Shown: positions 8,876-59,078 of the stretch, in pieces
How positions within the stretch are numbered: the stretch's first letter is position 1
Layout of the letters: every line of letters starts with the position of its first letter
Origin: Candidatus Fraserbacteria bacterium
GTDB taxonomy: Bacteria; Bipolaricaulota; Bipolaricaulia; RBG-16-55-9
Assembly: GCA_037442925.1 (NCBI GenBank)
Contig: JBBIPG010000004.1
Location: 1-60,493 of the forward strand
DNA length: 60,493 bases
Reading direction: 5' to 3'
Made by a program: the position numbers and the translations under genes
The notes under the pieces: model-generated
Databases searched by the model: none
Seen by the model: the letters and a program-made list of their open reading frames with translations, nothing else
What the model was told of the DNA's origin: nothing

Positions 8876-9343
8876 TCAACTCAGAAAGCTCTCTGGCATT
8901 TGCACGGCGACCACCTCTCCTTTCGCCGTGACCACTCCGTTGGCTGAAACTATGACGTCTACGATCACCTTGCGGCCCCGGAGTTCCTTCACCCGCCCGC
9001 GCACTTCCAGCTCGGCATCAAGGGGTGTCGGCTTAAGATAGTCCACATGCAACGACGCTGTGACAAAACGCAAGGGCGGCTGGCTGTCCATGTCACGGCC
9101 TTCGGCGCGGTACATGGCAGCAGCTGCCGTCGCCGTGCTGTGACAGTCGATCAGCGAAGCAATCAGCCCCCCGTACACGTAGCCTAAGATGGCTGTGTGA
9201 TACGGACGGGCGCGGAAGCGGGTCACCGATTCATCGCCTTCCCAGTACGTCTTGATCTGCAAACCATGCTGGTTCAACCGCCCACAGCCATAACAGTGGG
9301 CGACGTTGTCAGGATAATAGTCCTGAAAAGCTTTTCCTGTCAT
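8876..9343 (-). CDS. PaaI/hot-dog fold thioesterase
   Basis: CYGCG..N..GL, YGGLIASLIDCH, VTASLHVDYLKPTP; GAGGAGG RBS before ATG 9343. Confidence 0.85.
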   Translation of the reverse strand: MTGKAFQDYYPDNVAHCYGCGRLNQHGLQIKTYWEGDESVTRFRARPYHTAILGYVYGGLIASLIDCHSTATAAAAMYRAEGRDMDSQPPLRFVTASLHVDYLKPTPLDAELEVRGRVKELRGRKVIVDVIVSANGVVTAKGEVVAVQMPESFLS

Positions 9344-9463
9344 GCTTCCTCCTCTTGCAAAGCCCGTGCGCTGAACGAGCTTCCGCAAGGGTATACGATC
9401 TAGGTACTTTTGGGCAAGCAGAGTCGTAGGAGCCGTGCGGCCACTGTTCCTTAATTCGCCATG

Positions 9464-9510: not shown

Positions 9511-12500
9511 ATGGGACAGCAGGCAAGCCACCGCGTAACACTTGAGGATCTGCGCTTGTGTCGAACCCCTGAAGCTTTGTGCGAATATCTGCTTCGCCCA
9601 TTGGGCTATCGTGTGGAAGAATCACTCCAGCCTCTCGATAAGCAAGCCCTCGACCTGGCTCCGGCTGAGGGGAGAGAGGTGCGCAAGATCTATCTGCTTG
9701 CCGATCACGATCGCCAGTTACAAGTGCTCCTTTGCGAACTCGAGAGCCTCGAGAGCACTCCTCTGAACGCACTGGCAAAGAACTTCCTGCGTCGGCCCGG
9801 CAACTATCTCTTGATCGCCACGCAAGATTACAAGACTCTTGTCTTCATCAATCCCCGCCGCCTGCTCGACGACGGCGCACGCCTGAAGATCAAAATCCAT
9901 AAACTCCTCGTCGATACGACCAATCCCACCCGCCACGACCTCGAAGTCCTGCAAGGCCTCTCCGTCGATGGGCGCTCTGCGATAGAGCTGTATCAAGCCC
10001 ACTGCGAGGCCTTCAACGTCGAGCGCGTCACGCAGCGCTTCTATCGCGAATATGCTCGGCTCTTCGAGCATCTCCAGCAACAAGTACACTCCCACAATCG
10101 CGGCATCGCCCAGTTCAAAGACAAAGCCTATCTGCACGCCTTTACCCAACGCCTGCTGGGGCGCGTGATGTTCTTGTATTTCTTGCAGAAGAAGCTCTGG
10201 CTCGCGGGCCATCCCCGCTTTCTCACAACTTACTATCAGCGCGTCGTGCTCGACAAGCGCAAGAACTACTACAGCGACTTTCTCGAAAAGCTCTTCTTCG
10301 AGACGCTCAACCGCCGACGAGCGGATGATCAATCGCCCTGGGGCAATATCCCGTATCTCAACGGTGGCCTCTTCGAGCGCGATTATCGCTTCATGCTCTA
10401 TCTGCCCAATGAACTCTTCGATCCCAACTCGGATCTGGGCATCTTGGGCTTCTTCAACAGCTGGAACTTCACAGTTCAAGAAGACACTCCCTTAGAGTCC
10501 GACGTGGCGCTCGACCCGGAGCTTCTGGGCAAGGTCTTCGAGAACATGATGGAGTCCGCCGAGCGCGAGCAGTCCGGCACATTTTACACTCCACGTACCA
10601 TCGTGCACTTCATGTGCCGCACGGCCCTTGTGGAGCATCTGTCTGACGAGACGAAGCTCCCTCGTGATCAAATCCGAAAGCTCTTTGAGCTAGACGATGA
10701 GAGTAAGCCGGAGCTCACCGTGGCCGAAGCCACACGGATCGAGAAGGCGCTCCGGCAGTTGCGTGTGCTGGACCCGGCAGTCGGGACAGCGGCCTTTCTC
10801 GTCAGCATGCTTCAAGAGATGATCGCGCTTAGAAGAGCCTGCGAGCGAGCCAAAGGAGCGGAAGTTCGAGTGGGCAGTGCGAAGATTGCCGAATGGAAGC
10901 GCGAGTACATTGCCAATTGTCTTTATGGTGTGGACATCAAAGAAGAGGCCATCGAGATCGCCAAGCTGCGGTTGTGGCTCTCTCTGGTCGTCGATCTGGA
11001 GCGCGATCAAGTCATGCCGCTGCCCAACCTCGATTACAAACTCATGGTCGGGAATTCTCTGATGGAGACGCTCGATGGACAGCCCATTCTCACGATGGAG
11101 AAAGGGCAGACAATTGCTCTGTTGCCCACGGAGACACAACGGGCCATCGAGGAGCTCCAGAAGCTCAAAGAGCAATTCTTTGAAGCCGAGCCGGAGGAGC
11201 GAGCCAAGCTACGTCGGGAAATCGAAGAGCAAGAGCGAGATCTCGTGCTCACGCACATTGCCGAGCGCCAACGCGAGATCGACTCTCAGATGAGGGCCAT
11301 TGAGTCACGGCGCCATCGCGGAAGGCTCGCACGTGCTGATGAAAAGCAGCTGGAGAAGTTGATCCAGTTGGGCGGCGCGCTCGCTCAACTGGAGAGCAAG
11401 ATCAATCAGGGCGAAGCGCTGCCGTTTTTTCTCTACAAGCTGCACTTTGCCGAGGTCTTTGCTGAGAAGGGCGGCTTCGATATTGTCATCGCCAATCCGC
11501 CGTATGTGCGCCAAGAGCGCCTCGATGAAGCTCAGAAAGCTGCGTTTCAGCAGGCTTTCGAGTGCTATCACGGCATGGCCGATCTCTATGTCTATTTTTA
11601 CGAACGGGGCTTTCAGCTCTTAAAGCCCAACGGGCTCTTGGCGTTCATCTCAAGCAATAAATTTTTTAGGGCGGGCTATGGCCGGGGCCTACGCGAGTTT
11701 CTCACAAGAAACGCGACCATTCAGACGATCATTGACTTTGGCGATCAGCCCGTCTTCGATGCGACGGCCTATCCGTGCGTGCTGGTTGTCAAGAATGGCC
11801 CGCCTGCCGATGCTGCCTCCGTCCGGGCGCTCACGGTGACGCAGATCGAGGACTTAGAGCATTTAGATCGGAAGCTGGCTTCCGAAGCAATAGTGCTGAA
11901 GCAGACAGATCTTTCGCCCGAGGGCTGGCGGTTAGAATCGCCACAGCTTTTGCGACTGTTGGAGAAGATAAAATCAGCGGGCGTGCCGCTGGGCGAGTAC
12001 GTGGGGGGCAAGTTTTATCGTGGGATTGTGACAGGATTGAACGAGGCATTTGTGATTGACGAGGAGACGAAGGAGAAGCTGATTGCGGAAGACCCAAAGA
12101 GTGCGGAGATTATCAAGCCGTTCTTGCGTGGGCGGGACATCAAGCGTTGGCGGGTGGATTTTCAGAAACGTTATCTGATCTGGACATATGTGGGAGTGGA
12201 CATCGAGCGTTATCCAGCTATCAAGAAGCATCTTGAGCAATTTCAAGAACGGTTAGAGAAGCGTTGGGACAAGGGTGACTATTGGTGGGAGCTTCGGCCC
12301 TGCGACTACTACGCCGAGTTCGAGAAGCCGAAGATTGTGTATCCGGATATTGCTCGCCGATGTGAGTTTGCTTTTGACGGCAACGGATTCTACGTTGACT
12401 GCACCATTTTCTTGATCCCGACAGACAAATGCTTCCTACTTGGGTTTCTTAACTCTCGCTTGATGAATTTCTGCTACTCGCACATCAGCCCCAGTATTCG

Positions 12501-12738
12501 TGGAGACTTCATGCGCTTCAAAACCATCTACATGGGCCAACTGCCGATTGCGCAGGCCACAGAGAAAGAGAAGACTCAAATTGAAAAGCTGGTCGCGCAG
12601 ATTCTCAAACAGCCCAAAGATGAGCGCGTCGCAAAGTGGGAACACGAGATTGACCAGATCGTCTATAAGCTCTACGGGCTGAGCGAGGAGGAGATTGGAT
12701 TGATTGAGGAGTGGGATGCGAAGAGGCAAAGAGACTAA
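9511..12738 (+). CDS. Eco57I-like / Type IIG-like N6-adenine DNA methyltransferase with C-terminal TaqI_C-type target recognition domain
   Basis: IPYLNGGLFE, LLGKVFENM, GTFYTPRTIVHFM, motif I VLDPAVGTAAF, GVDI, motif IV IANPPY, and C-terminal KPFLRGRDIKRW / EFEKPKIVYPDI. Confidence 0.9.
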   Translation: MGQQASHRVTLEDLRLCRTPEALCEYLLRPLGYRVEESLQPLDKQALDLAPAEGREVRKIYLLADHDRQLQVLLCELESLESTPLNALAKNFLRRPGNYLLIATQDYKTLVFINPRRLLDDGARLKIKIHKLLVDTTNPTRHDLEVLQGLSVDGRSAIELYQAHCEAFNVERVTQRFYREYARLFEHLQQQVHSHNRGIAQFKDKAYLHAFTQRLLGRVMFLYFLQKKLWLAGHPRFLTTYYQRVVLDKRKNYYSDFLEKLFFETLNRRRADDQSPWGNIPYLNGGLFERDYRFMLYLPNELFDPNSDLGILGFFNSWNFTVQEDTPLESDVALDPELLGKVFENMMESAEREQSGTFYTPRTIVHFMCRTALVEHLSDETKLPRDQIRKLFELDDESKPELTVAEATRIEKALRQLRVLDPAVGTAAFLVSMLQEMIALRRACERAKGAEVRVGSAKIAEWKREYIANCLYGVDIKEEAIEIAKLRLWLSLVVDLERDQVMPLPNLDYKLMVGNSLMETLDGQPILTMEKGQTIALLPTETQRAIEELQKLKEQFFEAEPEERAKLRREIEEQERDLVLTHIAERQREIDSQMRAIESRRHRGRLARADEKQLEKLIQLGGALAQLESKINQGEALPFFLYKLHFAEVFAEKGGFDIVIANPPYVRQERLDEAQKAAFQQAFECYHGMADLYVYFYERGFQLLKPNGLLAFISSNKFFRAGYGRGLREFLTRNATIQTIIDFGDQPVFDATAYPCVLVVKNGPPADAASVRALTVTQIEDLEHLDRKLASEAIVLKQTDLSPEGWRLESPQLLRLLEKIKSAGVPLGEYVGGKFYRGIVTGLNEAFVIDEETKEKLIAEDPKSAEIIKPFLRGRDIKRWRVDFQKRYLIWTYVGVDIERYPAIKKHLEQFQERLEKRWDKGDYWWELRPCDYYAEFEKPKIVYPDIARRCEFAFDGNGFYVDCTIFLIPTDKCFLLGFLNSRLMNFCYSHISPSIRGDFMRFKTIYMGQLPIAQATEKEKTQIEKLVAQILKQPKDERVAKWEHEIDQIVYKLYGLSEEEIGLIEEWDAKRQRD

Positions 12739-13207
12739 AAGTCAACGTGAAAAACCCACCAGGTCCGTTGTAGATCAGCACGCATCGGGAGAGAACGTCA
12801 CGACCCAACAGAACGATAATATCTCGTCCCGCAATGCTTTGCCCTGATAGATCAACACCGATGACCGAGCTGAACTCGAGTTCTAGCGCTTCTCCTGGAA
12901 AGCGAAACCTTGCGGGATACAAATGCTGCTGGACTCGCCCACCTGCTGTCCCAGTCGTAGTAACCCCGATTGGGTTCACACCCAGATTTGTAATGGCCTT
13001 TGAATCGACACAGCTCCGTGTAGCTCCCGTATCAATGAGCGCCCAGCCTGTTACAGGTGCAGGAATGGACTGGTTTTGCGCTGTGAGGAATTGAGCCAGT
13101 GCCGAGGGGATTGAGACTTCCACTTGCAAGAGAGGGCCTGCCTGTACCAAGACAGCGGGGTTAATCTGATTGCCCTGGCTAAGGAAGAAGCGATTATGAA
13201 CGGGCAT
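12605..13207 (-). CDS. Retropepsin-like (clan AA) aspartic protease; C-terminus reads through into the methyltransferase gene
   Basis: ALIDTGATRS catalytic motif and LLGRDVL second motif. ATG 13207 overlaps the upstream gene's stop by 14 nt. The fold appears to end near 12740 (GFFTLTF). Confidence 0.85.
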   Translation of the reverse strand: MPVHNRFFLSQGNQINPAVLVQAGPLLQVEVSIPSALAQFLTAQNQSIPAPVTGWALIDTGATRSCVDSKAITNLGVNPIGVTTTGTAGGRVQQHLYPARFRFPGEALELEFSSVIGVDLSGQSIAGRDIIVLLGRDVLSRCVLIYNGPGGFFTLTFSLFASSHPTPQSIQSPPRSARRAYRRSGQSRVPTLRRAHLWAV

Positions 13208-13442
13208 TGAGCAATCCCAAAGTGAGCGCAGGGAAGTGGACGACTTCCTCTTCCTTCGTGACCTTCTTGATGAGGAAGGGTTGATTACCAAATCTCTGAA
13301 TCCCAGCTTGGTAAGCTTCTACCTCTGTAGTAAAAGCTCCAACGAGTTGATCATCCTTGATCAAGACAAATTGATTTTCGTAATGCTTCAAGAGTTCGTC
13401 TTTGTGATCTTCGAAGTACTTCAACTCTTTCGCCAGGACCAT
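13194..13442 (-). CDS. Small DUF5678-like protein (82 aa)
   Basis: YFEDHKDELLKHYENQFVLIKDDQLVGAFTTEVEAYQAG..RFG..PFLIKKV pattern; GGAGGAGG RBS. Confidence 0.75.
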   Translation of the reverse strand: MVLAKELKYFEDHKDELLKHYENQFVLIKDDQLVGAFTTEVEAYQAGIQRFGNQPFLIKKVTKEEEVVHFPALTLGLLNARS

Positions 13443-13598
13443 CAGCTACCCTCCTCCGCCGGAAAAGATACCACACACTCTCACTTGTACCAACTTGTTC
13501 CACCTGAAGTATAGCAGTTACCTCTCTCAGGATCAAAATGCAGAGTTGGCCGAATGAGCCATCCATGCTACGATCAACCGTTACGGAGACTAAAGACT

Positions 13599-16500
13599 AT
13601 GCCCAGCTACTTGCCACCAGACTATATCGACAACCAGCACGAGACTCTGGCTGCGGCGCTACAGAAGATCATCCGCGATCTGGAGCAGCACGAGGCAGCT
13701 ATCGCCACGGGCTTCTTCGATCCTCGTGTGTGGGAACTCTTGCGAGAAGCATTGCCCCTCTTGAAGGAGTTGCGCTTGCTCATCGGCAAGGAGCCCGATG
13801 TCACCTATGGTGGCCTGGATCGCCTGGATCTGCGCCGACTCTATCGCCAAAAGCTCCAAAGCGATCTTGACGAAATGCCTTATGATGTGACTCATGTGAG
13901 ATTAGTCACAGAGCTGATCGAGTTTCTCAAGCGAGAATCTGTGAGCGTCAAGCTCTACAAGAAGGGCTTCCTGCACGCGAAGGCGTACATCTTTCCCGAG
14001 ATCGCTGTCGTGGGCTCGAGCAATTTCACGCCCTTTGGTCTGACGCGCAACTCCGAACTCAACTTGGTGCGCAAAGAGCGCTCCGTCGCCACAGATTTGA
14101 GAGACTGGTTCGACGCTTTCTGGGAAGAATCTGAGGACTATAAGCCTGAGCTGATTGAAACGCTGGAAGCTTCTAAATTTGGTGGCAAGCCCTACACGCC
14201 CTACGAAGTCTTCATCAAGACCCTCTATGAATACTTCAAAGACCGGCTCATTCCCGAAGCGCCCGAGAGCCAATTGGGGGTCGAACTGGCAGCGTTTCAA
14301 GAAGAAGGCTTAAAGGAAGCCATGCGCATTCTGGATAGACACCACTGCGTACTCATCTCGGATGCCGTGGGACTGGGCAAGACGTTCATCGGCTTGGGCC
14401 TGCTGGAGCATTATCTCTTGCGCAAGCGTCGTCGAGGTCATATCCCGCAAGGGCTGGTCATCTGTCCGGCTCAACTGCGCGACATCCTCTGGAGGCCCAA
14501 ACTGGCTGAGCATGGCCTCAGTGCCACGGTCGTCTCGCAGGAAGAAGTCAGCCGCGCAGATTTCCCGTGGAACGCTTATAAGAACTTCGATCTGGTCTTG
14601 GTGGACGAAAGCCACAACTTTCGCAATCCCGGCATCGGACGCTCTCAAAACCTGATGAAGCTGCTTTCCACAGGAAGACGCGATAAGCATGTCATTCTCA
14701 TGACCGCAACGCCCATCAATAACTCGATCTGGGATCTTTATCATCAGATGATGTTGATGGCCCGAGGAAGCGACGAGTACTTTCGGGATTGGGGCATCAG
14801 TAACTTGAAGGGCTTCTTCCGCAGGGTCGATCAAGGAGCCGCAGAGCTATTTGATCTACTGGAAGAGACGACCGTGCGTCGCAGCCGCTCTGATATCCGC
14901 AAGCGCCAAGAGGCCGGAGAAACCATTACGCTTCACGGCGAAGAAGTCAGATTTCCGCAGCGCGAATTGCAAGCCATCGACTACGATCTTGTCGCGACCT
15001 ATCAAGGTTTCTATCAAGAGATTGCCCGTAGCATTGAGGCACTCAGTCTCGTCAGCTACAACATCGAGGAATTCAAGCGGTCTCGCGATCCGGATCACGT
15101 ACATCGCATACAACGCAACAACGCGCTCATCGGCATCATGAAGACGCTCTTTCTCAAACGACTCGAAAGCTCGGTGGAGGCGTTTGAAGTGAGCATTCGC
15201 CGTCAGCGCCAATTCCAGCAACAGTTCTTCGAGCACCTGCTGCAGAATCGATTGCTAGACACTACAAACCATCGAAAGATTCTGGCCCTGGAACAAGAAG
15301 ACGATGAGGAGTCACTTGTGCAGATCATAGAGAATCTGCCAGAAGTCTCCATTGCTGAATATGATCTCAAGGCCATTCGTCGCGCCGTCGAGATGGATCT
15401 TCAGATCTTTGAGAGTATGGAAGAACGGCTTAAGAAAATCCGCAAAGCCACAGAACAAGACATCAAATTGGATCGCAAGCTGGAGCGCCTCAAAGCGGTG
15501 CTCCTGGAGCGATTTAGGGGGCAGAAGATCTTGATCTTCTCGTACTATCAAGACACAGCAATACATATCTATGAGCGGCTTCAAGGTGACTCAACGTGGA
15601 GTTCTCAAATGGGCAATCCTCGGCTGGGTCTAGTCTGCGGAGCTCGTTCTGTCTATAGCGAACCCGGCTCCGGTGAAGATCGTCATCTGCCGCGCGAGCA
15701 GCTCATCAAGCATTTCGCTCCGCTCTCCAATGCTGCCAATGAGGATGAACGGAAGAGCTTGCAAACACGAGAGATTCAGGTTTTAATCAGCACCGACGTG
15801 CTCTCCGAGGGGCAGAATCTGCAAGATGCTGCCATCTGCATCAATTATGATCTGCACTGGAATCCGGTGCGCATGATCCAGCGAGCCGGGCGGATCGATC
15901 GGCTCAATTCAAAGCACTCTCGAGTGACGGTGTGCAATTTCTTTCCAGAAAGAGGGCTTGAGGATCTTTTGGGGCTTGTCAAGCGACTGCAACAGAGAAT
16001 TACCGATATCCACAGAACCGTCGGCCTCGACACGAGCGTGCTAGGCGAGCGGGTGACCGAGCGGTCGCTGGAGGAGCTCAAGCGTCTCAAGTCGGCTGAG
16101 GAGGGCGTCTGGGAGGAGCTGGAGCGAGAGGTTGAGCTGCTCTCGTTGGATGAGATGAAGTTCCCTTTGATTCAGTGCCTGCAATCGTTGGGAGAAGACA
16201 GACTCAAAGAAATCCCCCTGGGCATTCATAGCGGGAGGCACGCTTCTCTTGATGGTCTCTTTCTGGCCTTCAGAGCGCGTGATCGCCATTTCTGGCGCTT
16301 CTACCCTGCGGATAAGAGCAGTCCTGTATGGAAGGAGAAGCGCAAGATCTTTAAGCTCATTCAATGCCCTATGGAGGAACCGCGGCAGATGCCGACCCCC
16401 AGGCCGGACGTGTTTGAGATCATGGATCGTGCAGTCAAAGACCTGCTAGAAGAGCTAAAGAGCGTTGAAGCCACACGCCGCATCAAGAGCCCTCTCAAAA

Positions 16501-16814
16501 GCATGAACCTCAAGCTCTACAGCGCGCTTCACCAAGGTTCGCAGTCTTCTCAACCCATATCTGCTGATCTGCGTGAGCGTTTGAGCGGCGTCTTGGAAGA
16601 GATTTCTCTGAAGCCCTTCGAGCGTGATCCGGCTCTGAAAGCGATCTGGCAGCAGTTTCAAAAGAGCGGTGATCTCAGAGCACTAGCGGATGACTTGGAT
16701 GCTTTCTTTGTCGAGAACGAACTCTATCGCGACATGGCTCCGCCGGCACTGCTGGAGCGAATTCGTGCAGAAGATCTGCAGCTTGTCTGCTATGAATTTC
16801 TCACGGCCCATTGA
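13599..16814 (+). CDS. PLD-nuclease / SNF2-family helicase fusion
   Basis: N-terminal FLHAKAYIF..AVVGSSNFT (PLD HxK/GSxN); SDAVGLGKT, LVDESHNFRN, MTATPINN, STDVLSEGQNLQ, NYDLHWNPVRMIQRAGRIDR. GGAG RBS before ATG 13599. Confidence 0.9.
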   Translation: MPSYLPPDYIDNQHETLAAALQKIIRDLEQHEAAIATGFFDPRVWELLREALPLLKELRLLIGKEPDVTYGGLDRLDLRRLYRQKLQSDLDEMPYDVTHVRLVTELIEFLKRESVSVKLYKKGFLHAKAYIFPEIAVVGSSNFTPFGLTRNSELNLVRKERSVATDLRDWFDAFWEESEDYKPELIETLEASKFGGKPYTPYEVFIKTLYEYFKDRLIPEAPESQLGVELAAFQEEGLKEAMRILDRHHCVLISDAVGLGKTFIGLGLLEHYLLRKRRRGHIPQGLVICPAQLRDILWRPKLAEHGLSATVVSQEEVSRADFPWNAYKNFDLVLVDESHNFRNPGIGRSQNLMKLLSTGRRDKHVILMTATPINNSIWDLYHQMMLMARGSDEYFRDWGISNLKGFFRRVDQGAAELFDLLEETTVRRSRSDIRKRQEAGETITLHGEEVRFPQRELQAIDYDLVATYQGFYQEIARSIEALSLVSYNIEEFKRSRDPDHVHRIQRNNALIGIMKTLFLKRLESSVEAFEVSIRRQRQFQQQFFEHLLQNRLLDTTNHRKILALEQEDDEESLVQIIENLPEVSIAEYDLKAIRRAVEMDLQIFESMEERLKKIRKATEQDIKLDRKLERLKAVLLERFRGQKILIFSYYQDTAIHIYERLQGDSTWSSQMGNPRLGLVCGARSVYSEPGSGEDRHLPREQLIKHFAPLSNAANEDERKSLQTREIQVLISTDVLSEGQNLQDAAICINYDLHWNPVRMIQRAGRIDRLNSKHSRVTVCNFFPERGLEDLLGLVKRLQQRITDIHRTVGLDTSVLGERVTERSLEELKRLKSAEEGVWEELEREVELLSLDEMKFPLIQCLQSLGEDRLKEIPLGIHSGRHASLDGLFLAFRARDRHFWRFYPADKSSPVWKEKRKIFKLIQCPMEEPRQMPTPRPDVFEIMDRAVKDLLEELKSVEATRRIKSPLKSMNLKLYSALHQGSQSSQPISADLRERLSGVLEEISLKPFERDPALKAIWQQFQKSGDLRALADDLDAFFVENELYRDMAPPALLERIRAEDLQLVCYEFLTAH

Positions 16815-16840
16815 CAACCATCTCGCTGACCCCTTAGACT
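16811..16840 (+). promoter_or_regulatory. sigma70 promoter of the molybdoenzyme operon; imperfect repeat of 9464-9493
   Basis: TTGACA-N18-TAGACT, overlapping the helicase stop codon. Confidence 0.6.
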
Positions 16841-17357: not shown

Positions 17358-19778
17358 ATGGCGAGAACGAAAGATTTTTCAGTGATTGGAAAACCCTTTC
17401 CGCGCGTGGACGCCTGGGCCAAATGCACTGGGCGTGCCCAGTACGCCGATGATCTCTCCCTTCCGCGCATGGCCTATGGGAAGCTTTTACCCAGCATCTA
17501 TCCCCATGCTCTCATCCAACATATTGACATAAGTCAGGCAGAGCGTCTCTCCGGCGTGCTTGCCGTGATCACAGGTGAGAGCCTTCCCGTCAAATATGGC
17601 ATCATGCCCAGCACACAAGACGAGACGGCCTTAGCTGTCGGAAAAGTACGCTATGTGGGTGAACCTGTGGCTGCCGTCGCTGCCATCGACGAAGACATAG
17701 CTGAAGAAGCCCTCTCGCTCATTCATGTGGAATATGAGCCCCTCAAGCCCATCATGTCCATCGAGGAGGCCGTGACAGTCAAAGAACCGCGCATCCACGA
17801 CTACGGCCCTGAAGGCAACATTCACAAGCTCGTCTCTCTAGAATTTGGCGATGTCGATGCTGGCTTTGCTGAGGCCGATCATGTGCGCGAAGATGTCTTC
17901 TTCTATCAGGGCAACACGCATCTGCCCATGGAGCAGCATTCCGCTCTTGCCCAATGGAACCCTGCGGAAGAGAAGCTGACCCTCTGGAGTTCGACTCAGA
18001 CCGCGCACTATGTGCATCGTGCTCTCGCCAGAGTGCTGCAACTGCCTGAGCACAAGATTCGGGTGATTGCCCCACCCGTCGGTGGCGGCTTTGGCGGAAA
18101 AGATGATCCCTTCTCGCATGAGATCTGTGCAGCCAAGCTCAGCATGATCACGGGTCGCCCCATCAAGATCACACTCACCCGTGAAGAGGTCTTTTACGCA
18201 CACCGTGGGCGTCACCCGGTGTTGATGTGGGTCAAGACGGGTGTCAAAAAGAACGGGAAGATCACAGCGATGCATTTCAAGTCGTTTCTCGATGGCGGAG
18301 CCTACGGCTCCTACGGAATCGCCAGCACCTATTATACAGGTGCCTTGCAGACGATCACGTACAAGATCCCGGCGTATCGCTTCCAAGGAATGCGGGTGTT
18401 CACAAACAAACCCCCTTCAGGTCCCAAGCGCGGGCACGGCACACCACAGCCGCGCTATGCTCTGGAACTGCACATGGACAAGCTCGCTCAGGATCTCAAG
18501 ATCGATCCGATTACGCTACGCTTGCGCAATTTGACGGGGCCGAACCACATGACAGTCAACTGGCTTAAGATCACGAGCAATGGCCTCAAGAAATGCATTG
18601 AAAGAGTGATCGAAGCCTCGGGCTGGAGGGAGAAATACAAGAAGCTGCCTCTGGGAAAGGGAGTAGGCTTTGCCTGCAGCACATATATCTGTGGGGCTGG
18701 ACTGCCCATCTACTGGAATGACATGCCCCACTCAGAAGTGCAGATCAAGATCGACCGCACCGGCACAGTGACTGCGTTCTCGGGTGCCATCGATATTGGG
18801 CAGGGCTCAGACACGGTGCTGGCGACGGTCATTGCCGAGGTGCTGGGGCTCTACCCCCAAGACATCAAGCTGGTCACGGCCGACACAGACTTGACGCCCA
18901 TTGATTTGGGAAGCTACTCCAGTCGGGTGACGATGATGATGGGCAACGCGGCCTATGAAGCCGCCATGAAAGCCCGCAAACTCCTCTTCAAGGCCGCCTC
19001 TGAAAAATTGGGCGTGCCGGTCAAAAATTTAGTCGCTAAAGAGCGGCGCATCTTCGACAGAGAAGATCCCAAGCGGGCTCTCTCTTTTGCGGAGGCCGCA
19101 CGGCTAGCGGAAGCTCGATTTGGCTTAATCGGGGCTGTAGGCAGCTATAAGCCCCCTAAGAAGATGGGCAATTACAAGGGTTCAGGTGTGGGTCCTTCGC
19201 CTGCCTACAGCTTCTCTGCCTGCGTAGCGCAAGTCGACTGTGATTCCGAGACGGGCAATGTGAAGGTAGAGAAGATCTGGCTGGCGCATGACATTGGGCG
19301 GGCGATCAACCCCATTCTTGTGGAAGGCCAGATCGAGGGCAGTGTGTATATGGCCTTGGGTGAAGTATTGATGGAAGAGCAGATTTTCAGGAAGAATCTC
19401 CATAAGATCCCGTCGCTGCTCGACTATAAGAGCTTGACGTTCAAGGAGATGCCAGAAGTAGAGTCGATTCTCGTTGAGACGGACGAGCCGCGGGGACCCT
19501 TTGGGGCCAAAGAAGCGGGTCAGGGGCCGCTTAATCCCGTCATTCCAGCAGTGGCCAATGCCGTCTACAACGCTCTTGGCATTCGAATCGAGGAGATCCC
19601 GATCACGCCGGAGAAGGTGCTGAAAGCTCTGGAAGAGAAAGCGAAGGGCAAGCTGGCGCGTGTTGGCCCGGATGGGATTCCCGACTATAAATTCCCCGAT
19701 CCCATCAAGGTCGAGCCTCCGGAGGAGTGGAAACAGGAGCATCCACCTGTGAGCCAAGCGGCCGAAAAGGTAGGTTGA
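17358..19778 (+). CDS. Xanthine oxidase-family molybdopterin-binding large subunit, HcrA-like, with an atypical active site
   Basis: GGGFGGK, AHRGR, RGHG, DIGQGSDT, GSYSSRVT, EGQIEG and GPFGAKEA follow HcrA; Gln occupies the catalytic Glu position. Confidence 0.88.
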   Translation: MARTKDFSVIGKPFPRVDAWAKCTGRAQYADDLSLPRMAYGKLLPSIYPHALIQHIDISQAERLSGVLAVITGESLPVKYGIMPSTQDETALAVGKVRYVGEPVAAVAAIDEDIAEEALSLIHVEYEPLKPIMSIEEAVTVKEPRIHDYGPEGNIHKLVSLEFGDVDAGFAEADHVREDVFFYQGNTHLPMEQHSALAQWNPAEEKLTLWSSTQTAHYVHRALARVLQLPEHKIRVIAPPVGGGFGGKDDPFSHEICAAKLSMITGRPIKITLTREEVFYAHRGRHPVLMWVKTGVKKNGKITAMHFKSFLDGGAYGSYGIASTYYTGALQTITYKIPAYRFQGMRVFTNKPPSGPKRGHGTPQPRYALELHMDKLAQDLKIDPITLRLRNLTGPNHMTVNWLKITSNGLKKCIERVIEASGWREKYKKLPLGKGVGFACSTYICGAGLPIYWNDMPHSEVQIKIDRTGTVTAFSGAIDIGQGSDTVLATVIAEVLGLYPQDIKLVTADTDLTPIDLGSYSSRVTMMMGNAAYEAAMKARKLLFKAASEKLGVPVKNLVAKERRIFDREDPKRALSFAEAARLAEARFGLIGAVGSYKPPKKMGNYKGSGVGPSPAYSFSACVAQVDCDSETGNVKVEKIWLAHDIGRAINPILVEGQIEGSVYMALGEVLMEEQIFRKNLHKIPSLLDYKSLTFKEMPEVESILVETDEPRGPFGAKEAGQGPLNPVIPAVANAVYNALGIRIEEIPITPEKVLKALEEKAKGKLARVGPDGIPDYKFPDPIKVEPPEEWKQEHPPVSQAAEKVG

Positions 19779-20854: not shown

Positions 20855-21940
20855 ATGAGGGAATTGCTTGGGATCTTGAATCGCATTGTAAAGCTCTCTG
20901 CGGAGGGGCAAGCGGCGGCACTGGCCACGGTCATTGCCACCTCCGGCTCGACCTATCGCCGTCCCGGAGCACGGCTGCTCGTTATGGAATCTCAGTCCAT
21001 AGGAGCCGTCAGCGCAGGCTGTCTTGAAGACGAAATCATCTCCGTCGCTCAACGCGTTTTGAAAACAGACCAGCCTCAGCGGATACACTTTGACACGGCG
21101 GAAGAGATGGACCCCATCGTGGGCACAGGGTTGGGCTGCCGTGGCACCATCGAAGTCTTCATCGAGTCTCTGCAAGCTGATGAGGGCGGTGCGCGGGTCT
21201 ATCGCGAGCTGCGCCAGGCGCTCATGCAAGATCGAGTCTGCCATCTGGCCATCGAGCCCAAGACGGCTCGACATATGCTCATCGTGGAGGGAGAGCTCTG
21301 TTTGGACGAGCTGGAAGATCCCCAGCTGCTGGCGGCCGTACGCCGCGCTTCAGGGTCGATGCGTGGAAGGCATGAAATCCTTCAGCCACAACCTGATAGA
21401 GCAATCTATCTTGAACGCATTGATCCGCCGATGAGACTCGTGATCTTTGGCGCAGGATATGATGCGATTCCGCTTGTCCAGCTGGCTAAGGAGCTGGGTC
21501 TTCGCGTTACGGTGGTCGATCATCGCCCGGCGTATTTGACAAGGGAGCGCTTTGCGAACGCCGATCAGCTTCTGCTGGCGCATCCTTCAGAGCTCTCGCA
21601 GAAGATTCAGCTTCAACCGGGCTCGTTCGTCGTCATCATGACGCATAACTATCTCCACGATCTGGAGATTCTCAAATTCACGCTTGGGAGTGAAGCTTCT
21701 TATATCGGCCAGATGGGACCGCGGGAGCGCACCCAAGAGTTACTGGCTGAGATTGAGAAAGGGATTGGACCACTCTCTGCTGAAAGACTCGCACGTGTAC
21801 ATGCGCCTATTGGGTTGGATCTGGGAGCCGAGGCTCCTGAGGAGATTGCCCTGAGCATCTTGAGCGAGATTCTGGCTGTGAAGAATGTGCGCTCTGCGGG
21901 ATTCTTGAAGGGACGTCAAGCGCCGATTCACTCCCCATGA
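20855..21940 (+). CDS. xdhC: XdhC/CoxF-family Moco sulfuration/insertion chaperone
   Basis: GSTYRRPGA, GAVSAGCLE, LGCRG, FGAGYDA, MTHNY..D, APIGLDLGA..PEEIALSI. Confidence 0.92.
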   Translation: MRELLGILNRIVKLSAEGQAAALATVIATSGSTYRRPGARLLVMESQSIGAVSAGCLEDEIISVAQRVLKTDQPQRIHFDTAEEMDPIVGTGLGCRGTIEVFIESLQADEGGARVYRELRQALMQDRVCHLAIEPKTARHMLIVEGELCLDELEDPQLLAAVRRASGSMRGRHEILQPQPDRAIYLERIDPPMRLVIFGAGYDAIPLVQLAKELGLRVTVVDHRPAYLTRERFANADQLLLAHPSELSQKIQLQPGSFVVIMTHNYLHDLEILKFTLGSEASYIGQMGPRERTQELLAEIEKGIGPLSAERLARVHAPIGLDLGAEAPEEIALSILSEILAVKNVRSAGFLKGRQAPIHSP

Positions 21941-22554
21941 GCCGTGAACATAAACTGCCCGGTGTCGTACTGGCTGCCGGGCAGGGAACGCGCTTTCGTG
22001 ACGGCTACAAGCTGCTCATGCCCTTCCGCCATCGTGCGATCATCTATCACAGCGTGAGAGCCCTGCTCGATTCGCAATGCGAACCCGTGGTGCTTGTAGT
22101 GGGCTTTGAGCGCGAGAAGATTCTGAAGGCTCTAGGGGAACTACGAGATCATCCCAAACTGCGAATCGTTCACAATGAGCGCTGGCAGTCGGGGCAGGCT
22201 TTTTCTGTGAGAGCCGCGATTGAGCATCTGCCCCAGGATGCGCCCGGTGTGCTCTTTTTGCCGGGAGATATGCCGCTGATGAGGAGCGTGCTCGTGGATC
22301 GCGTCACACAGCGATTTCTCCAGACGGGTGAGCTCTGTTTTCCCATCTATCAAGGCCAGAAGGGCCATCCGACGGCTTTCCCCCGTGAGCTATTAGGCCG
22401 ACTCTGCGAGCTGGAAGGCGATGTTGGTGGCTTATCTCTCGTGCGCGAACATTGGGGTGACGCAGAGAAGATTGAGCTTGAAATTGGAGAAGAATGTACA
22501 CAATTGGATCTCGATACGGCAGCGGACTACCAGCGTCTGAAAGCTCTTCAATGA
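21937..22554 (+). CDS. mocA: Molybdenum cofactor cytidylyltransferase-like NTP transferase
   Basis: VLAAGQGTRF, LPGDMP, GHPTAF, GDVGG, DLDT..DY. Confidence 0.8.
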   Translation: MSREHKLPGVVLAAGQGTRFRDGYKLLMPFRHRAIIYHSVRALLDSQCEPVVLVVGFEREKILKALGELRDHPKLRIVHNERWQSGQAFSVRAAIEHLPQDAPGVLFLPGDMPLMRSVLVDRVTQRFLQTGELCFPIYQGQKGHPTAFPRELLGRLCELEGDVGGLSLVREHWGDAEKIELEIGEECTQLDLDTAADYQRLKALQ

Positions 22555-23186
22555 AGATCACAGCGCTCGTATTAGCCGGAGGCCAATCTCATCGAATGGG
22601 GCAAGACAAACGACTGCTGGAATACCAGGGCAAGCCACTCATCCGTAGAGCATTCGAGGCAACTCAAGCCATTAGCGACGAACTTTGGGTACTCATCGCT
22701 TCTCACGAAGATCAGCAAATCCTCTCGCCGCTGCTTAATAGAGATACCCGCTTTCTCCTCGATGAGCATCCCAACTCCGGCCCTCTGGCAGCCCTGGTAA
22801 ACGCCCTTCCTCACGTCAAGAGCAAGTACGCTCTGCTGCTGGCTGTCGATTATCCGCTGGTAACGAGGTCGTTCCTGCAAAAGATGAAAAGCACATTGGA
22901 AGCCCAAGCGCCCTCGCCTGATGCCTTTGTTCCCCTCTGGCAAGGCATTCCCCAAGTCGCGTGTGCTTTCTATCGACAATCGCTTCACACAGAACTGAAA
23001 GAAGCGTTTCTAAAGGGAGAACGCTCGCTCCGTCGCTGGGTGCTGAGCTCGCCCAAGGGCAGAGTGCAGTGGCTGCACGAGGAGGACTGGCAGCGATGGG
23101 AGCACCGCGAGGTCTTTCTCAATGTCAACACGCCTCAAGACTACCAGCGCCTTCTGCAACTGGCCCGGAGTCCATTTGAAAAGTAG
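22551..23186 (+). CDS. mobA: Molybdenum cofactor guanylyltransferase
   Basis: VLAGGQSHRMGQDK, GPLAAL, AVDYP, FLNVNTPQD; ATGA overlap with mocA. Confidence 0.88.
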   Translation: MKITALVLAGGQSHRMGQDKRLLEYQGKPLIRRAFEATQAISDELWVLIASHEDQQILSPLLNRDTRFLLDEHPNSGPLAALVNALPHVKSKYALLLAVDYPLVTRSFLQKMKSTLEAQAPSPDAFVPLWQGIPQVACAFYRQSLHTELKEAFLKGERSLRRWVLSSPKGRVQWLHEEDWQRWEHREVFLNVNTPQDYQRLLQLARSPFEK

Positions 23187-23212
23187 ACCCTGAATGTCCG
23201 ATAATAACCGAC

Positions 23213-24190
23213 ATGAAGCTCACGGATCGCTTTGGCCGAGTGCACAATTATCTGAGAATCTCAGTCACGGACCGCTGCAATCAGCGCTGTCACTTCTGCA
23301 TGCCCCTTGATCAACAATTCTTTCACTCCAAGAAAGAGATCCTTTCTTTTGAAGAGATCGTGATGATCGTGCAAGTGGCCAACAAGCTGGGCATCGACCG
23401 CGTGCGGATCACCGGCGGCGAGCCTCTCGTCCGGCGCGAGTTGCCCAAGCTCATCTGTATGCTCAAAGGTGAGACAGACACGAAAGACATCTCGATGACC
23501 ACCAACGGCCTGCTGCTGGAACGCTTCGCCCAGCCGCTCAAAGAAGCAGGCCTAGATCGCATCAATGTCAGCTTGCACTCACTCCAATCTGAAAGATTCA
23601 ATAAACTTACACGCTTCGGAACGTTAGAGACGGTGCTCCGTGGCATCCGCAAAGCAATGGACGTGGGCTTAAAACCAATAAAACTTAACGCGCTCATTCT
23701 AAAAGGCTTCAACGAAGACGAGATCGAGGATCTCTTCCAGCTCACGCTGCAAGATAAGATCGTCGTCCGTTTTCTGGAGCTGATGCCCATCGGCGAGGCG
23801 CTTAGCTTAAACGGCTTCGGCTCATATCTCAACTTGACAAGAGTGCGCGAGAGGCTTGCTGAGAAATATGGGCTCCTGCCGGCCGCAGAGAACGGCAACG
23901 GTCCAGCCAAGTATTGGCAAGCGCCAGGAGCTCCGGGGAAGGTGGGCTTCATCACGCCGATCTCCAACAAATACTGCGACACATGCAGTCGCTTGAGACT
24001 GACAGCCAACGGGGAACTTCGGCCTTGTTTGGCGTATGATGTCCACGTGAACATGCGCGAGGCCATTCGCAACCGCGATCTCGCTGCCATCGAAGAGGCT
24101 TTCATAAGAGCACTGGAGATCAAGCCCAAAGGACATCATTGGGAAGAAGGGCAGACCACGCACACCGTCATGTCCAGTTTGGGAGGTTAG
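23213..24190 (+). CDS. moaA: GTP 3',8-cyclase (radical SAM)
   Basis: CNQRCHFC, RITGGEP, CDTCSRLRLT..G.LRPCL, C-terminal GG. Confidence 0.96.
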   Translation: MKLTDRFGRVHNYLRISVTDRCNQRCHFCMPLDQQFFHSKKEILSFEEIVMIVQVANKLGIDRVRITGGEPLVRRELPKLICMLKGETDTKDISMTTNGLLLERFAQPLKEAGLDRINVSLHSLQSERFNKLTRFGTLETVLRGIRKAMDVGLKPIKLNALILKGFNEDEIEDLFQLTLQDKIVVRFLELMPIGEALSLNGFGSYLNLTRVRERLAEKYGLLPAAENGNGPAKYWQAPGAPGKVGFITPISNKYCDTCSRLRLTANGELRPCLAYDVHVNMREAIRNRDLAAIEEAFIRALEIKPKGHHWEEGQTTHTVMSSLGG

Positions 24191-24192
24191 CG

Positions 24193-24441
24193 ATGCGCGT
24201 GAAAGTCGTCTTCTACGGAGGGCTCAAGCGCGACGTGGGCGCCAAAGCACAAGAGCTTCAGTTCGACAACCAGACTCTAACTGTCGCGCAACTCAAAGAT
24301 GGGCTCATCGCAAGATATCCTGTGTTGCGCCCGAAGCTTTCCAGCGTTGTTTGTGCCGTGGGAGATGAGATTGTGAGCGGGGATTATCTCATTCGAGATG
24401 GCGATGAAGTGGCACTTCTTCCGCCTGTGAGCGGAGGTTAG
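24193..24441 (+). CDS. moaD: Molybdopterin synthase sulfur carrier subunit
   Basis: Ubiquitin-like fold ending GDEVALLPPVSGG. Confidence 0.93.
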   Translation: MRVKVVFYGGLKRDVGAKAQELQFDNQTLTVAQLKDGLIARYPVLRPKLSSVVCAVGDEIVSGDYLIRDGDEVALLPPVSGG

Positions 24442-24442
24442 C

Positions 24443-24892
24443 ATGGGCTGCTGGATCAGCGAAGAGCCGTTGGATCTCAACCGGCTCCTCCAAGAGACAG
24501 AAGATCCCGCTAGCGGAGCGCTCGTGATCTTTAGCGGCACAGTGCGCAACGAGAATGAAGGCCAGCCCGTAAGGGCAATCACGTACGAAGCCCACGTTCC
24601 GTTAGCAGAAAACGTCCTGCGAGCACTCGAAGAGGAAGTTCTCTCGCGCTTCAGCGTACGACGATGTCGGGTCCAGCATAGAATCGGCACGTTGCCGGTG
24701 GGCGAGCCAAGTGCGATCATCGTAGTGCGGGCAGCGCATCGCGCAGAAGCATTCCAAGCTGCTCAGTACGCCATGGATGAACTAAAGCAACGCGCTCCCA
24801 TCTGGAAAGAAGAGCACTATGAGACCGGCGAGAGTCGTTTTCTGGAGGGCACGTCTCTGACTCTGAAGGTGAGTGGAAGACCCAAGCCATGA
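24443..24892 (+). CDS. moaE: Molybdopterin synthase catalytic subunit
   Basis: FSGTVRN, HRIG.L.VGE, AAHRAEAF, PIWKEE. Confidence 0.94.
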   Translation: MGCWISEEPLDLNRLLQETEDPASGALVIFSGTVRNENEGQPVRAITYEAHVPLAENVLRALEEEVLSRFSVRRCRVQHRIGTLPVGEPSAIIVVRAAHRAEAFQAAQYAMDELKQRAPIWKEEHYETGESRFLEGTSLTLKVSGRPKP

Positions 24893-25812
24893 AAGATATC
24901 GCTGAAAAATTCGAGACGCTTCGAGAAGCCATGGCCGAGGCCTTCGTGGCAATTCCCCCAGATGCCCTCGCTCTTTTAAAAGAGAGACGCACCGAGAAAG
25001 GGGATGCCCTGGAAGTGGCACGGGCCGCCGGAATCTTGGCTGCCAAGCGCACTTGGGAGCTTCTTCCCTTCTGCCATCCGCTCCCTCTGACTCATGTGGA
25101 AATCTCGTACGCTTTTGAGAATGAAGGTATGCGCATTCAAGCATCAACTAAGACAATCGCGCCTACAGGTGTAGAGATGGAAGCTCTGACAGCCGCAAGC
25201 ATTGCGGCACTGACGCTCTATGACATGCTCAAGCCTCATACCCAAGAGATCGAAATCCGCTCAGTACGTCTCGTCTCGAAGAGTGGTGGCAAGAGCGATT
25301 ATCGCGCTGCACTCACGCCACCGGTGAAGGCTTGGGTGATCGTGCTTTCAGATAGTGTAGCTTCTGGTAAGAAAGAAGATCGCGCAGGCAAGACGATTCT
25401 CGAGGCTTTGGAGAAAGAGCTAGCCGTGGACGTCAAAGGCTATGAGATTCTGCCCGATGATCCCAAGAAACTCAGAGGAAAAGTGAGTGATCTCGTGGAA
25501 CAGGGCACGGATTTGATTCTCACGGTCGGAGGCACGGGACTGGCTCACACGGATCAGACGGTGGAAGCGCTTCGGCCGCTCATTGAGCGCGAGATCCCCG
25601 GTGTCATGGAAGCGGCACGGGCCTACGGGCAGCGCCGCACACCCTACGCGATGCTCTCACGCGGAATCGCAGGAATGATCAAGAACACATTGGTAATCAC
25701 GCTGCCTGGCAGCACACGAGGCGCCAAAGAGACATACGATGCCATCTTTCCCGCTGTGCTCCACATCTTCTTTGTGCTCCGAAAACTTCCGCATCCACAC
25801 GGGTATACTTGA
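24889..25812 (+). CDS. moaC: Bifunctional MoaC-MoaB/MogA fusion
   Basis: N-terminal AAKRTWELLPFCH, TGVEMEAL, YDMLK; C-terminal VLSDS, GGTG, IPGVME, LPGS. Confidence 0.9.
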   Translation: MKDIAEKFETLREAMAEAFVAIPPDALALLKERRTEKGDALEVARAAGILAAKRTWELLPFCHPLPLTHVEISYAFENEGMRIQASTKTIAPTGVEMEALTAASIAALTLYDMLKPHTQEIEIRSVRLVSKSGGKSDYRAALTPPVKAWVIVLSDSVASGKKEDRAGKTILEALEKELAVDVKGYEILPDDPKKLRGKVSDLVEQGTDLILTVGGTGLAHTDQTVEALRPLIEREIPGVMEAARAYGQRRTPYAMLSRGIAGMIKNTLVITLPGSTRGAKETYDAIFPAVLHIFFVLRKLPHPHGYT

Positions 25813-26567
25813 TGCCCTTTGAGCTCTGGATTCTCCTGCCTTCGTTCTTCGCTGCTTCGTTCTTGTACTCTTCCGTCGGACACGGTGGAGCCTCCGCCTA
25901 TCTTGCCATCTCAGCCCTAGTAGGGCTCTCTCGCGAGGAGATGGTCCCCATCGCCCTGGCGCTCAACATCGTTGTGGCTGGCATCGGTTTCTGGCACTAT
26001 TGGCGAGCAGGACATTTCTCTAGGCAATTGTTATTGCCCTTCGTAATCACTTCGATACCCGGAGCATTTCTTGGCGGCTCGCTCATCATCTCTCCGCAGG
26101 TCTTCGCCGTGCTACTGGGGTTCACGTTGCTGCTGGCTGCGATACGACTCTTGGGGTTGGGGCGCGAGATTCGTCCCAAGTGGGAAGCGTTGCCTCAGTT
26201 GCTATGGCCTGTGGGCTTGGTCATCGGCGCTGTGTTAGGGGTTCTAGCAGGTCTCATCGGCGTCGGAGGCGGCATCTTCCTAAGCCCACTCTTGCTGTTC
26301 GTACATTGGGCTGATGCGAAACACACCGCGGCTGTTTCTAGTGCCTTTATTGTGCTGAACTCCATGAGCGGGCTGCTGGCGCAGTCGCTTCGACACAGTC
26401 CAAACTGGGATCTTCTGCTGCCACTCCTCGCTTCTGTGATCCTTGGGGGAGGGATCGGGTCTCGCTTGGGTGCCGAGCGTCTTTCCTCGGTAGTGCTGCA
26501 ACGTCTGCTGGGAGGAATTCTATTGATCGCTTCGTTCAAGTTGATTCAGCAGGCGCTCACCAGTTGA
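25812..26567 (+). CDS. TauE/SafE-family sulfite exporter
   Basis: SVGHGGAS, GAFLGG, IGVGGGIFLSP; multiple TM segments. Confidence 0.88.
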   Translation: MPFELWILLPSFFAASFLYSSVGHGGASAYLAISALVGLSREEMVPIALALNIVVAGIGFWHYWRAGHFSRQLLLPFVITSIPGAFLGGSLIISPQVFAVLLGFTLLLAAIRLLGLGREIRPKWEALPQLLWPVGLVIGAVLGVLAGLIGVGGGIFLSPLLLFVHWADAKHTAAVSSAFIVLNSMSGLLAQSLRHSPNWDLLLPLLASVILGGGIGSRLGAERLSSVVLQRLLGGILLIASFKLIQQALTS

Positions 26568-26581
26568 TCGGAGTTTCCCTC

Positions 26582-26611
26582 TTGCGAGCTCTCCCAGCTC
26601 AGTAGTAGAAT
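26582..26611 (+). promoter_or_regulatory. Probable sigma70 promoter of cysS-moeA
   Basis: TTGCGA-N18-TAGAAT. Confidence 0.55.
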
Positions 26612-26628
26612 CTGTCAGGTGATTCCAT

Positions 26629-32914: not shown

Positions 32915-32943
32915 GGTCCTCACTCATCCCCCTCGTGGGAGTC

Positions 32944-36620: not shown

Positions 36621-36682
36621 AGTCTCTCGTGAGGAGTATAGTTGAACGAGTCAGGGGAGAGCAATGAACTTTGGGAAAATTA

Positions 36683-52726: not shown

Positions 52727-52732
52727 GAGGCG

Positions 52733-59031: not shown

Positions 59032-59078
59032 GCACGATGCCAGTTTCGGCAAAGGCGAAGGCCATCCAGAAAGGAGAC

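Follow-up and report, generated by a model that had tools for sequence, protein, structure and literature searches.

A clade of HcrA-like molybdenum enzymes with glutamine in place of the catalytic glutamate of the xanthine oxidase family

The xanthine oxidase (XO) family comprises molybdenum (Mo) enzymes in which a glutamate beside the metal is treated as a universal catalytic residue. Molybdenum hydroxylases such as CoxLMS, xanthine dehydrogenase (XDH), quinoline oxidoreductase, Kdh, and PaoABC keep this residue and work in the oxidative direction; its general-base role consists in activating Mo-OH for nucleophilic attack (PMC10420851). Reductive chemistry recurs in the family, since 4-HBCR (4-hydroxybenzoyl-CoA reductase), represented by HcrCAB from Thauera aromatica (PDB 1RM6/1SB3; TIGR03193-03195), has been joined by a second reductive dehydroxylase: the urolithin C 9-dehydroxylase UcdCFO (Ucdh) from Enterocloster bolteae, a phenol dehydroxylase that needs XdhC and molybdenum-cytosine-dinucleotide (MCD) (PMC11760930, PMC12771579). 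Here, we analyze a 60,493-nucleotide stretch of DNA from a Candidatus Fraserbacteria bacterium (contig JBBIPG010000004.1; henceforth termed the window), in which an uninterrupted open reading frame (ORF) of 806 amino acids at positions 17358-19778 of the forward strand encodes an HcrA-like, XO-family Mo subunit with glutamine in place of that glutamate.

The closest solved and characterized relative of the encoded complex is HcrCAB, with which it is alike in all three subunits; for the large subunit, the best match among solved structures is HcrA (1RM6 chain A, phmmer E = 4.6e-182). PF01315, PF02738, and PF20256 match this protein far over their cut-offs, giving the a/b-hammerhead and two MoCoBD domains typical of the family, in the same fold and domain order as CoxLMS and the other molybdenum hydroxylases, to which identity is below 35%. 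The column in which the family carries its catalytic Glu beside Mo, and which we take to be that of bovine XO Glu1261, holds Q722. In the alignment with 1RM6_A, Q722 stands opposite Glu726 of HcrA (GAKEASEGM), and CoxL (8UEM) and Kdh (7DQX) have Glu at this position as well. Within the active-site loop, GAMRGHG of HcrA is replaced by GPKRGHG, with K357 opposite Met355 of the HcrA sequence CGAMRGHG; Q331, T334, and L289 differ from HcrA, too. A first-pass annotation made from the letters alone had singled out the glutamine and the lysine against the Glu and GAMRGHG of HcrA, and the alignment bears out both substitutions and every coordinate given for them (Table 1). Presumably, K357-R358-G359-H360 corresponds to F911-R912-G913-F914 of bovine XO and to the loop Y-R-C-S (AYRCSFR) of CODH. 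Three other pocket residues are those of HcrCAB: Y326, H360, and Q214 provide Tyr, His, and Gln in what we take to be the columns of bovine XO Arg880, Phe914, and Gln767. An AlphaFold2 model of the large subunit (18-sequence alignment) had a mean pLDDT of 65, with loops 240-251, 347-362, and 712-717 below 50, and was left unused for geometry.

Glutamine at this position extends far beyond a single genome. Gln and Lys occupy positions 722 and 357 in all 120 nearest database homologues (65-91% identity) and likewise in all 18 spread representatives of a further alignment, in which the GGGFGGK Mo cofactor (Moco)-binding motif, the Q214 column, R358, and other positions do not vary within the clade. 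When GTDB species were scanned, one genome each, at least 585 relatives were confirmed, and up to about 585 species are candidate clade members; the best 80 form the basis of all locus-level counts. The gene order small-large-medium subunit (S-L-M) is found in every one of these 80 loci. Hosts include Acidobacteriota (Pyrinomonadaceae, Blastocatellia, Terriglobia, Thermoanaerobaculia), Gemmatimonadota, Methylomirabilota, Dormibacterota, Chloroflexota, Acetothermia, Planctomycetota, and others, with Thermogemmatispora aurantia (Chloroflexota) as a cultured representative. In a joint alignment, Q722 is present in 199/199 clade sequences and Glu in 16/16 HcrA-like outgroups, the Gln codon being CAG in 64 loci and CAA in 16. 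K357 likewise occurs in all 199. Since Y326, H360, and Q214 are identical in clade and outgroups, the part of the pocket that can be mapped is HcrA-like.

To describe what sets the clade apart, we took as signature positions those conserved in at least 95% of the clade and absent from every outgroup. Only four positions pass: Q722, Q331 (198/199 clade members; L/M/S/I in outgroups), T334 (196/199; P/L), and L289 (193/199; H, K, R, E, I, or D). The latter three changed together with the exchange of Glu for Gln; among other Glu-less lineages of the family, position 331 showed no co-variation with loss of Glu. Comparison with a 91%-identical relative gave a dN/dS of 0.08 for the large-subunit gene. 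Taken together, the glutamine is almost certainly genuine and under selection, an active-site variant that defines a clade of HcrA-like enzymes. The subfamily is large, so far uncharacterized, and probably monophyletic, and its members probably use an active-site chemistry different from that of the Glu enzymes. Our literature search found no paper describing a Gln-type HcrA clade and nothing relevant on hcr genes in the host phyla or on 4-HBCR combined with the box pathway.

The origin of the two substitutions was traced with relatives drawn from 1.84 billion 50%-identity cluster representatives, whose columns were inspected and from which a neighbor-joining tree was built, with bootstrap values computed using a numpy distance. 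The Gln clade is nested inside HcrA-like enzymes. Its nearest neighbor is P0122, a fused S-L protein from Ignavibacteriales with 57% identity that combines GPKRGHG with Glu. The same combination is seen in the other uncharacterized sister clusters (P0123, P0127, P0131, P0145, P0152, and P0167); P0122 and these six share the lysine and the HRGRHP motif with the clade at 49-57% identity but keep Glu and have L/P at positions 331/334. Clusters with Met and Glu branch beyond them, and Thauera HcrA pairs with P0142, to which identity is only about 41-43% (41% for the window protein). The core Gln clade received 81% bootstrap support, against 54% with the early branch P0124 counted in; for the Gln clade joined with P0122, the value was 69%. 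A single origin of the glutamine is favored because P0124 carries the Q331/T334/Q722 signature as well.

These relatives bear directly on the lysine, which the first-pass annotation had regarded as new and as a possible substitute for the lost acid/base group. Next to P0122 lies a class-I benzoyl-CoA reductase, with BcrBC-like and BcrAD-like genes (two HGD-D, two BcrAD/BadFG), along with a POR-type oxidoreductase and an acyl-CoA dehydrogenase, and such an environment is the classical, anaerobic one of 4-HBCR; the surroundings of P0123, P0127, and P0131 were uninformative or lay on short contigs. Because the Glu-containing sisters share GPKRGHG, and one of them sits in a benzoyl-CoA reductase setting, Lys357 predates the exchange of Glu for Gln and tolerates Glu. 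The idea of Lys357 as a new, compensating residue is rejected on this evidence. The check that had been suggested, whether Q722 and K357 co-occur across a clade, finds both residues universal in it; outside the clade, the lysine also accompanies Glu.

Loss of the glutamate is not confined to this clade. Glu-less lineages recur in the family, as about 9% of the nearest 150 family cluster representatives lack Glu at the catalytic column, with Q, R, M, I, L, S, N, or A in its place. They are scattered over the tree (P0158, P0164, P0186, P0200, P0203, P0207, P0210, P0211, P0216, P0231, P0239, P0247, and P0267).

The remainder of the operon is intact, in agreement with the first-pass annotation: genes for all three subunits, an XdhC-type chaperone, and a MocA-type cytidylyltransferase were located. 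The small subunit contains eight Cys (43, 48, 51, 63; 102, 105, 137, 139) in the canonical spacing for two [2Fe-2S] clusters. In the FAD subunit (E = 8.6e-46 against 1RM6_B), an insertion loop holds four Cys that correspond to the additional [4Fe-4S] site in Thauera HcrB; they are kept across clade loci, while a fifth Cys (GGNLC) is variable. This loop is 16 residues longer than in HcrCAB, and the large subunit has a C-terminal tail of about 40 residues that HcrA lacks. PaoB and the medium subunit of a Methylobacillus aldehyde oxidase also match the FAD subunit over its full length. Dedicated Moco maturation genes are a family trait, and those of the MCD type are common to HcrCAB and the window. 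The XdhC protein has NF045664 (XdhC_rel_AOR) as its top NCBIfam match and the MocA protein TIGR03310 (134.5 bits), both under cut-off; NF045665 (NTPtran_DVU1551) also matched a window protein below its cut-off. Genes for Moco biosynthesis are the only ones directly beside the operon, and the gene order at 22494-29261 (Table 1) is the same in an Acetothermia locus (L001).

We tentatively explain these observations by a selected HcrCAB-type Gln variant that carries out reductive dehydroxylation of aryl-CoA esters, an explanation that we consider somewhat short of an even chance. The complex would contain MCD, two [2Fe-2S] clusters, FAD, and an extra [4Fe-4S] cluster in three subunits, and it would bind the CoA thioester of an aromatic acid, with 4-hydroxybenzoyl-CoA or a similar substituted benzoyl-CoA as the most probable substrate. 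As in 4-HBCR, electrons would enter via the [4Fe-4S]/FAD subunit and pass through the two [2Fe-2S] clusters to Mo, which would take off the ring substituent as Mo-bound oxygen to give benzoyl-CoA. No general base would be required in this direction for activation of Mo-OH. Gln722 could then offer the Mo-bound O/OH2 a hydrogen-bond partner that is always neutral, mimicking a protonated Glu, and the exchange would also take away one negative charge beside Mo. In several soil lineages, the benzoyl-CoA product would feed the oxygen-dependent BoxB/BoxC pathway. We infer that the most economical mechanism is one in which an aryl-CoA ester is still handled reductively and the base role of Glu is dispensed with; the reductive aryl-CoA mechanism as such seems possible on the residues and genes described here, and may well be wrong.

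Support for this explanation comes from the HcrA-like pocket and the four-Cys loop, from the position of the nearest sister, P0122, next to benzoyl-CoA reductase genes, from the reductive precedent of Ucdh, and from gene neighborhoods, which were assigned by similarity-based calls. No neighbor beyond S-L-M is universal in the clade; where informative neighbors are present, they are benzoyl-CoA pathway genes and aryl-CoA ligases, and the context is the aerobic box pathway rather than the anaerobic pathway of HcrCAB. S-L-M abuts boxC/boxB in 7-9 of the 80 loci, in four phyla and three arrangements. The two genes lie downstream of S-L-M in Methylomirabilota and Limnocylindria (recognized by similarity to those of locus L039, whose BoxC and BoxB score over the TIGR03222 and TIGR03225 cut-offs), upstream in a Terriglobia locus (L045) that has a BoxR-type regulator further upstream (over the PRK08154 cut-off), and divergent from S-L-M in a planctomycete (L078). 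Next to S-L-M, 7 loci have a benzoate-CoA-ligase-family gene (TIGR02262, 696 bits) and 11 have a PaaK-like ligase gene, Thermogemmatispora among the latter. L073 has a gene for a UbiD-family (hydroxy)arylic-acid decarboxylase, and L081 has genes for 2-oxoacid:ferredoxin oxidoreductases. Since box, benzoate-CoA ligase, and BoxR-like neighbors occur in part of the clade and the pocket is HcrA-like, a 4-HBCR-like reaction with Gln appears as likely as a new substrate.

Two further features of the neighborhoods were noted. The early-branching locus (L081, 13284-22301) combines large and small aconitase subunits, a PaaK-like ligase, an HMGL-like (isopropylmalate/homocitrate-synthase-type) gene, and two sets of 2-oxoacid:ferredoxin oxidoreductase genes, a set resembling a module for elongating or shortening 2-oxoacid chains, here joined to the Mo enzyme. 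In six Pyrinomonadaceae loci (L007, L011, L015, L016, L020, L024), 0.6-3.6 kb of unrelated genes (aspartyl-protease-like, polysaccharide deacetylase, DUF4062) are inserted between L and M, and genes for a MocA-like protein and a redoxin come after M.

Several points weigh against an aryl-CoA dehydroxylase. The 4-HBCR equivalogs are the best or near-best NCBIfam match of each subunit, yet all three scores fall short of the cut-off (TIGR03193, small subunit, 192.7 versus 257.8 bits; TIGR03194, large subunit, 867 versus 994.55; TIGR03195, FAD subunit, 242.7 versus 404.55), and at the active site Y326, H360, and Q214 of HcrCAB are kept but Glu726 and Met355 are replaced. Aromatic-CoA genes adjoin only 18 of the 80 loci. 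The 60-kb window contains no benzoyl-CoA pathway genes, and, unlike in HcrCAB, no benzoyl-CoA reductase, KGOR, or ferredoxin genes lie near the operon. The PaaK-like neighbor also resembles a DVU_1553-family ligase, and the DVU_155x naming is shared with NF045665 and the AOR-type NF045664, so this gene may serve in maturation instead of encoding a ligase for the substrate. Bootstrap support for the presumed single origin of the glutamine is moderate. Most clade hosts are aerobes, and 4-HBCR is oxygen-sensitive and needs low-potential ferredoxin (PMC12771579). Finally, Glu is not obviously dispensable for reduction, because both characterized XO-family dehydroxylases, Thauera HcrA and UcdO (E741; PMC11760930), keep it. 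Ucdh further differs from the clade in using NADH and in acting on a lactone rather than a CoA ester, and it is about 33% identical to 4-HBCR.

Part of this evidence would suit a different reaction or a substrate unlike that of HcrA (an N-heterocycle, for instance, or some other small molecule), with the loss of Glu offset by an acid/base group, possibly Lys357. The sub-threshold scores of all three subunits point this way, as do the four fixed clade-specific residues, the lack of nearby aromatic-CoA genes in most loci (the window included), and a distribution mainly in aerobic soil phyla with no expected need for an oxygen-sensitive 4-HBCR. The Glu-less tenth or so of the nearest representatives (about 9%) indicates that departures from canonical chemistry recur. 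Lys357, the candidate substitute, nevertheless accompanies Glu in seven sister clusters, of which one has the classical benzoyl-CoA reductase neighborhood; Y326, H360, and Q214 are unchanged relative to HcrA, and the neighbors that are informative concern benzoyl-CoA and aryl-CoA ligation. On balance, we regard this alternative as unlikely, if well worth keeping in view.

A more specific alternative assigns S-L-M to the box pathway itself, as a replacement for BoxA and possibly BoxD: the complex would oxidize a CoA-bound intermediate such as 3,4-dehydroadipyl-CoA semialdehyde, and BoxB, a di-iron epoxidase, would receive the electrons via the Fe-S clusters and FAD. Oxidation of aldehydes is among the classical XO-family activities. 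About 10 kb were read on each side of nine loci with boxB/boxC or a boxB-like gene (L021, L022, L023, L028, L038, L039, L045, L073, L078), and crude motif scans of these regions found no BoxA-like ORF (ferredoxin-type CxxCxxCxxxCP motifs) and no ORF with an aldehyde-dehydrogenase signature (BoxD). Adjacency to boxCB in three gene orders and four phyla would also agree with such a role, as would L021 and L023, where a BoxB paralogue (about 35% identity; 211 bits versus a cut-off of 499), a short crotonase, and a benzoate-CoA ligase are encoded beside S-L-M. Most clade members, however, including that of the window, have no nearby box genes, and boxA and boxD may sit elsewhere in these genomes. 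To our knowledge, oxidation of aldehydes and heterocycles is Glu-dependent in all family enzymes studied. This alternative is improbable, and the same holds for its fullest form, a Gln-type complex that does not feed but is integral to a variant aerobic benzoyl-CoA pathway, replaces both BoxA and BoxD, oxidizes the CoA-bound aldehyde from ring cleavage at its Glu-less Mo site, and delivers electrons directly to BoxB; if true, the pathway would be self-sufficient in reducing power and the base-independent oxidation chemistry new to the XO family.

The Mo site could also be catalytically dead, leaving an electron-transfer or regulatory module, or the gene could be decaying. Replacing the equivalent Glu730 in Rhodobacter capsulatus XDH reportedly abolishes activity. 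Against this stand the dN/dS of 0.08, the lack of variation in Moco-binding motifs across the clade, the presence in the same operon of XdhC, MocA, and all genes for Moco synthesis, and a glutamine that is invariant rather than drifting, which together make a dead or decaying enzyme very improbable. Pseudogenization in particular is excluded by the low dN/dS and the invariant Gln, as the first-pass annotation had argued from the intact operon. A sequencing or assembly error in the contig (GAG read as CAG), for which nothing speaks beyond the single-base difference between the codons, can be dismissed, since Gln is not unique to this assembly but occurs in 199/199 clade sequences, which are independent and stem from many assemblies, with both CAA and CAG as codons.

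The fixed glutamine, accompanied by all cofactor sites and maturation genes, amounts to a natural experiment on the role of the family's glutamate in the reductive direction. Candidate species number up to several hundred and belong to phyla that are abundant in soil and the subsurface. If aryl-CoA dehydroxylation is confirmed, a supposedly anaerobic reaction would be linked to the oxygen-dependent box pathway in aerobes, and the clade would be only the third reductive member of the XO family. For annotation, calling the enzyme a normal 4-HBCR is unjustified because its three subunits score below the equivalog cut-offs. NCBI names of clade members are generic, and JGI/KEGG-style pipelines label them "4-hydroxybenzoyl-CoA reductase alpha subunit", which inflates the anaerobic aromatic degradation inferred from metagenomes; clade members should not be annotated as ordinary 4-hydroxybenzoyl-CoA reductases.

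Table 1. Positions of the Mo enzyme genes, key residues, and Moco genes in the window
Feature	Position	Strand	Remarks
Promoter-like site TTGACA-18-TAGACT	16811-16840	+	Weak; 10/12 consensus matches, 29 nt ahead of S start
Small subunit, HcrC-like, 161 aa	16869-17354	+	Pfam Fer2, Fer2_2
Large Mo-cofactor subunit	17358-19778	+	Pfam Ald_Xan_dh_C, MoCoBD_1, MoCoBD_2
L289	18222-18224	+	Immediately follows HRGRHPV motif
Q331; T334	18348-18350; 18357-18359	+	Five and eight residues past Y326
Active-site loop GPKRGHG	18420-18440	+	K357 (AAG) 18426-18428, R358 18429-18431, H360 18435-18437
Q722 codon CAG	19521-19523	+	Within GAKEAGQGP, 19503-19529
Medium FAD subunit, HcrB-like, 344 aa	19785-20819	+	Pfam FAD_binding_5, CO_deh_flav_C
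FAD-subunit insertion loop, C124, C140, C164, C173	20154-20303	+	Four Cys aligned to HcrB Cys
XdhC-family Moco insertion/sulfuration chaperone	20855-21940	+	Pfam XdhC_CoxI, XdhC_C
MocA-type molybdenum cofactor cytidylyltransferase (makes MCD)	21937-22554	+	Pfam NTP_transf_3
MobA	22494-23186	+	
MoaA	23213-24190	+	
MoaD	24193-24441	+	Ends in GG
MoaE	24443-24892	+	
MoaC-MoaB/MogA fusion	24889-25812	+	
TauE-family permease	25809-26567	+	
CysS	26782-28050	+	
MoeA	28047-29261	+	

The position of the promoter-like site and a GGGGGA preceding the ATG of the S gene are compatible with an operon start; in this region, promoter-like sites were no more common than in shuffled sequence. Elsewhere, the window contains housekeeping genes, a restriction-modification/helicase island, and a number of genes of acyl-CoA type. 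The island (9511-16814, +) encodes a fused restriction-modification methylase of the Eco57I/MmeI type (1075 aa) and, after it, a PLD-nuclease/SNF2-helicase protein (1086 aa), a defense-type pair between an epimerase gene and the S gene. It is absent from the 91%-identical relative, which has a ThiF gene in its place and a HicAB pair between its L and M genes. Beyond the island, a 4HBT-superfamily hotdog thioesterase with an N-terminal CxxC motif (8876-9388, -) is the only acyl-CoA-type gene near the operon; given the breadth of this superfamily, it is a weak hint of CoA-ester metabolism.

Farther downstream, genes for a HerA-like ATPase, a NurA-like nuclease, an SMC/Rad50-like ATPase, and a calcineurin-type (Mre11-like) phosphoesterase stand in a row (31157-37732, -), an archaeal-style DNA end-resection set in an apparently bacterial contig. 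Acyl-CoA metabolism is represented by two SCP-x-type thiolase-like genes followed by two ChsH2/DUF35 OB-fold zinc-ribbon genes (49840-53218, +, and 56393-57331, +), with a MeaB GTPase nearby. At 59037-60239 (+), a gene product matches the bacterial archaeo-eukaryotic release factor (baeRF) families 10 and 5, whose domains are frequent in conflict systems.

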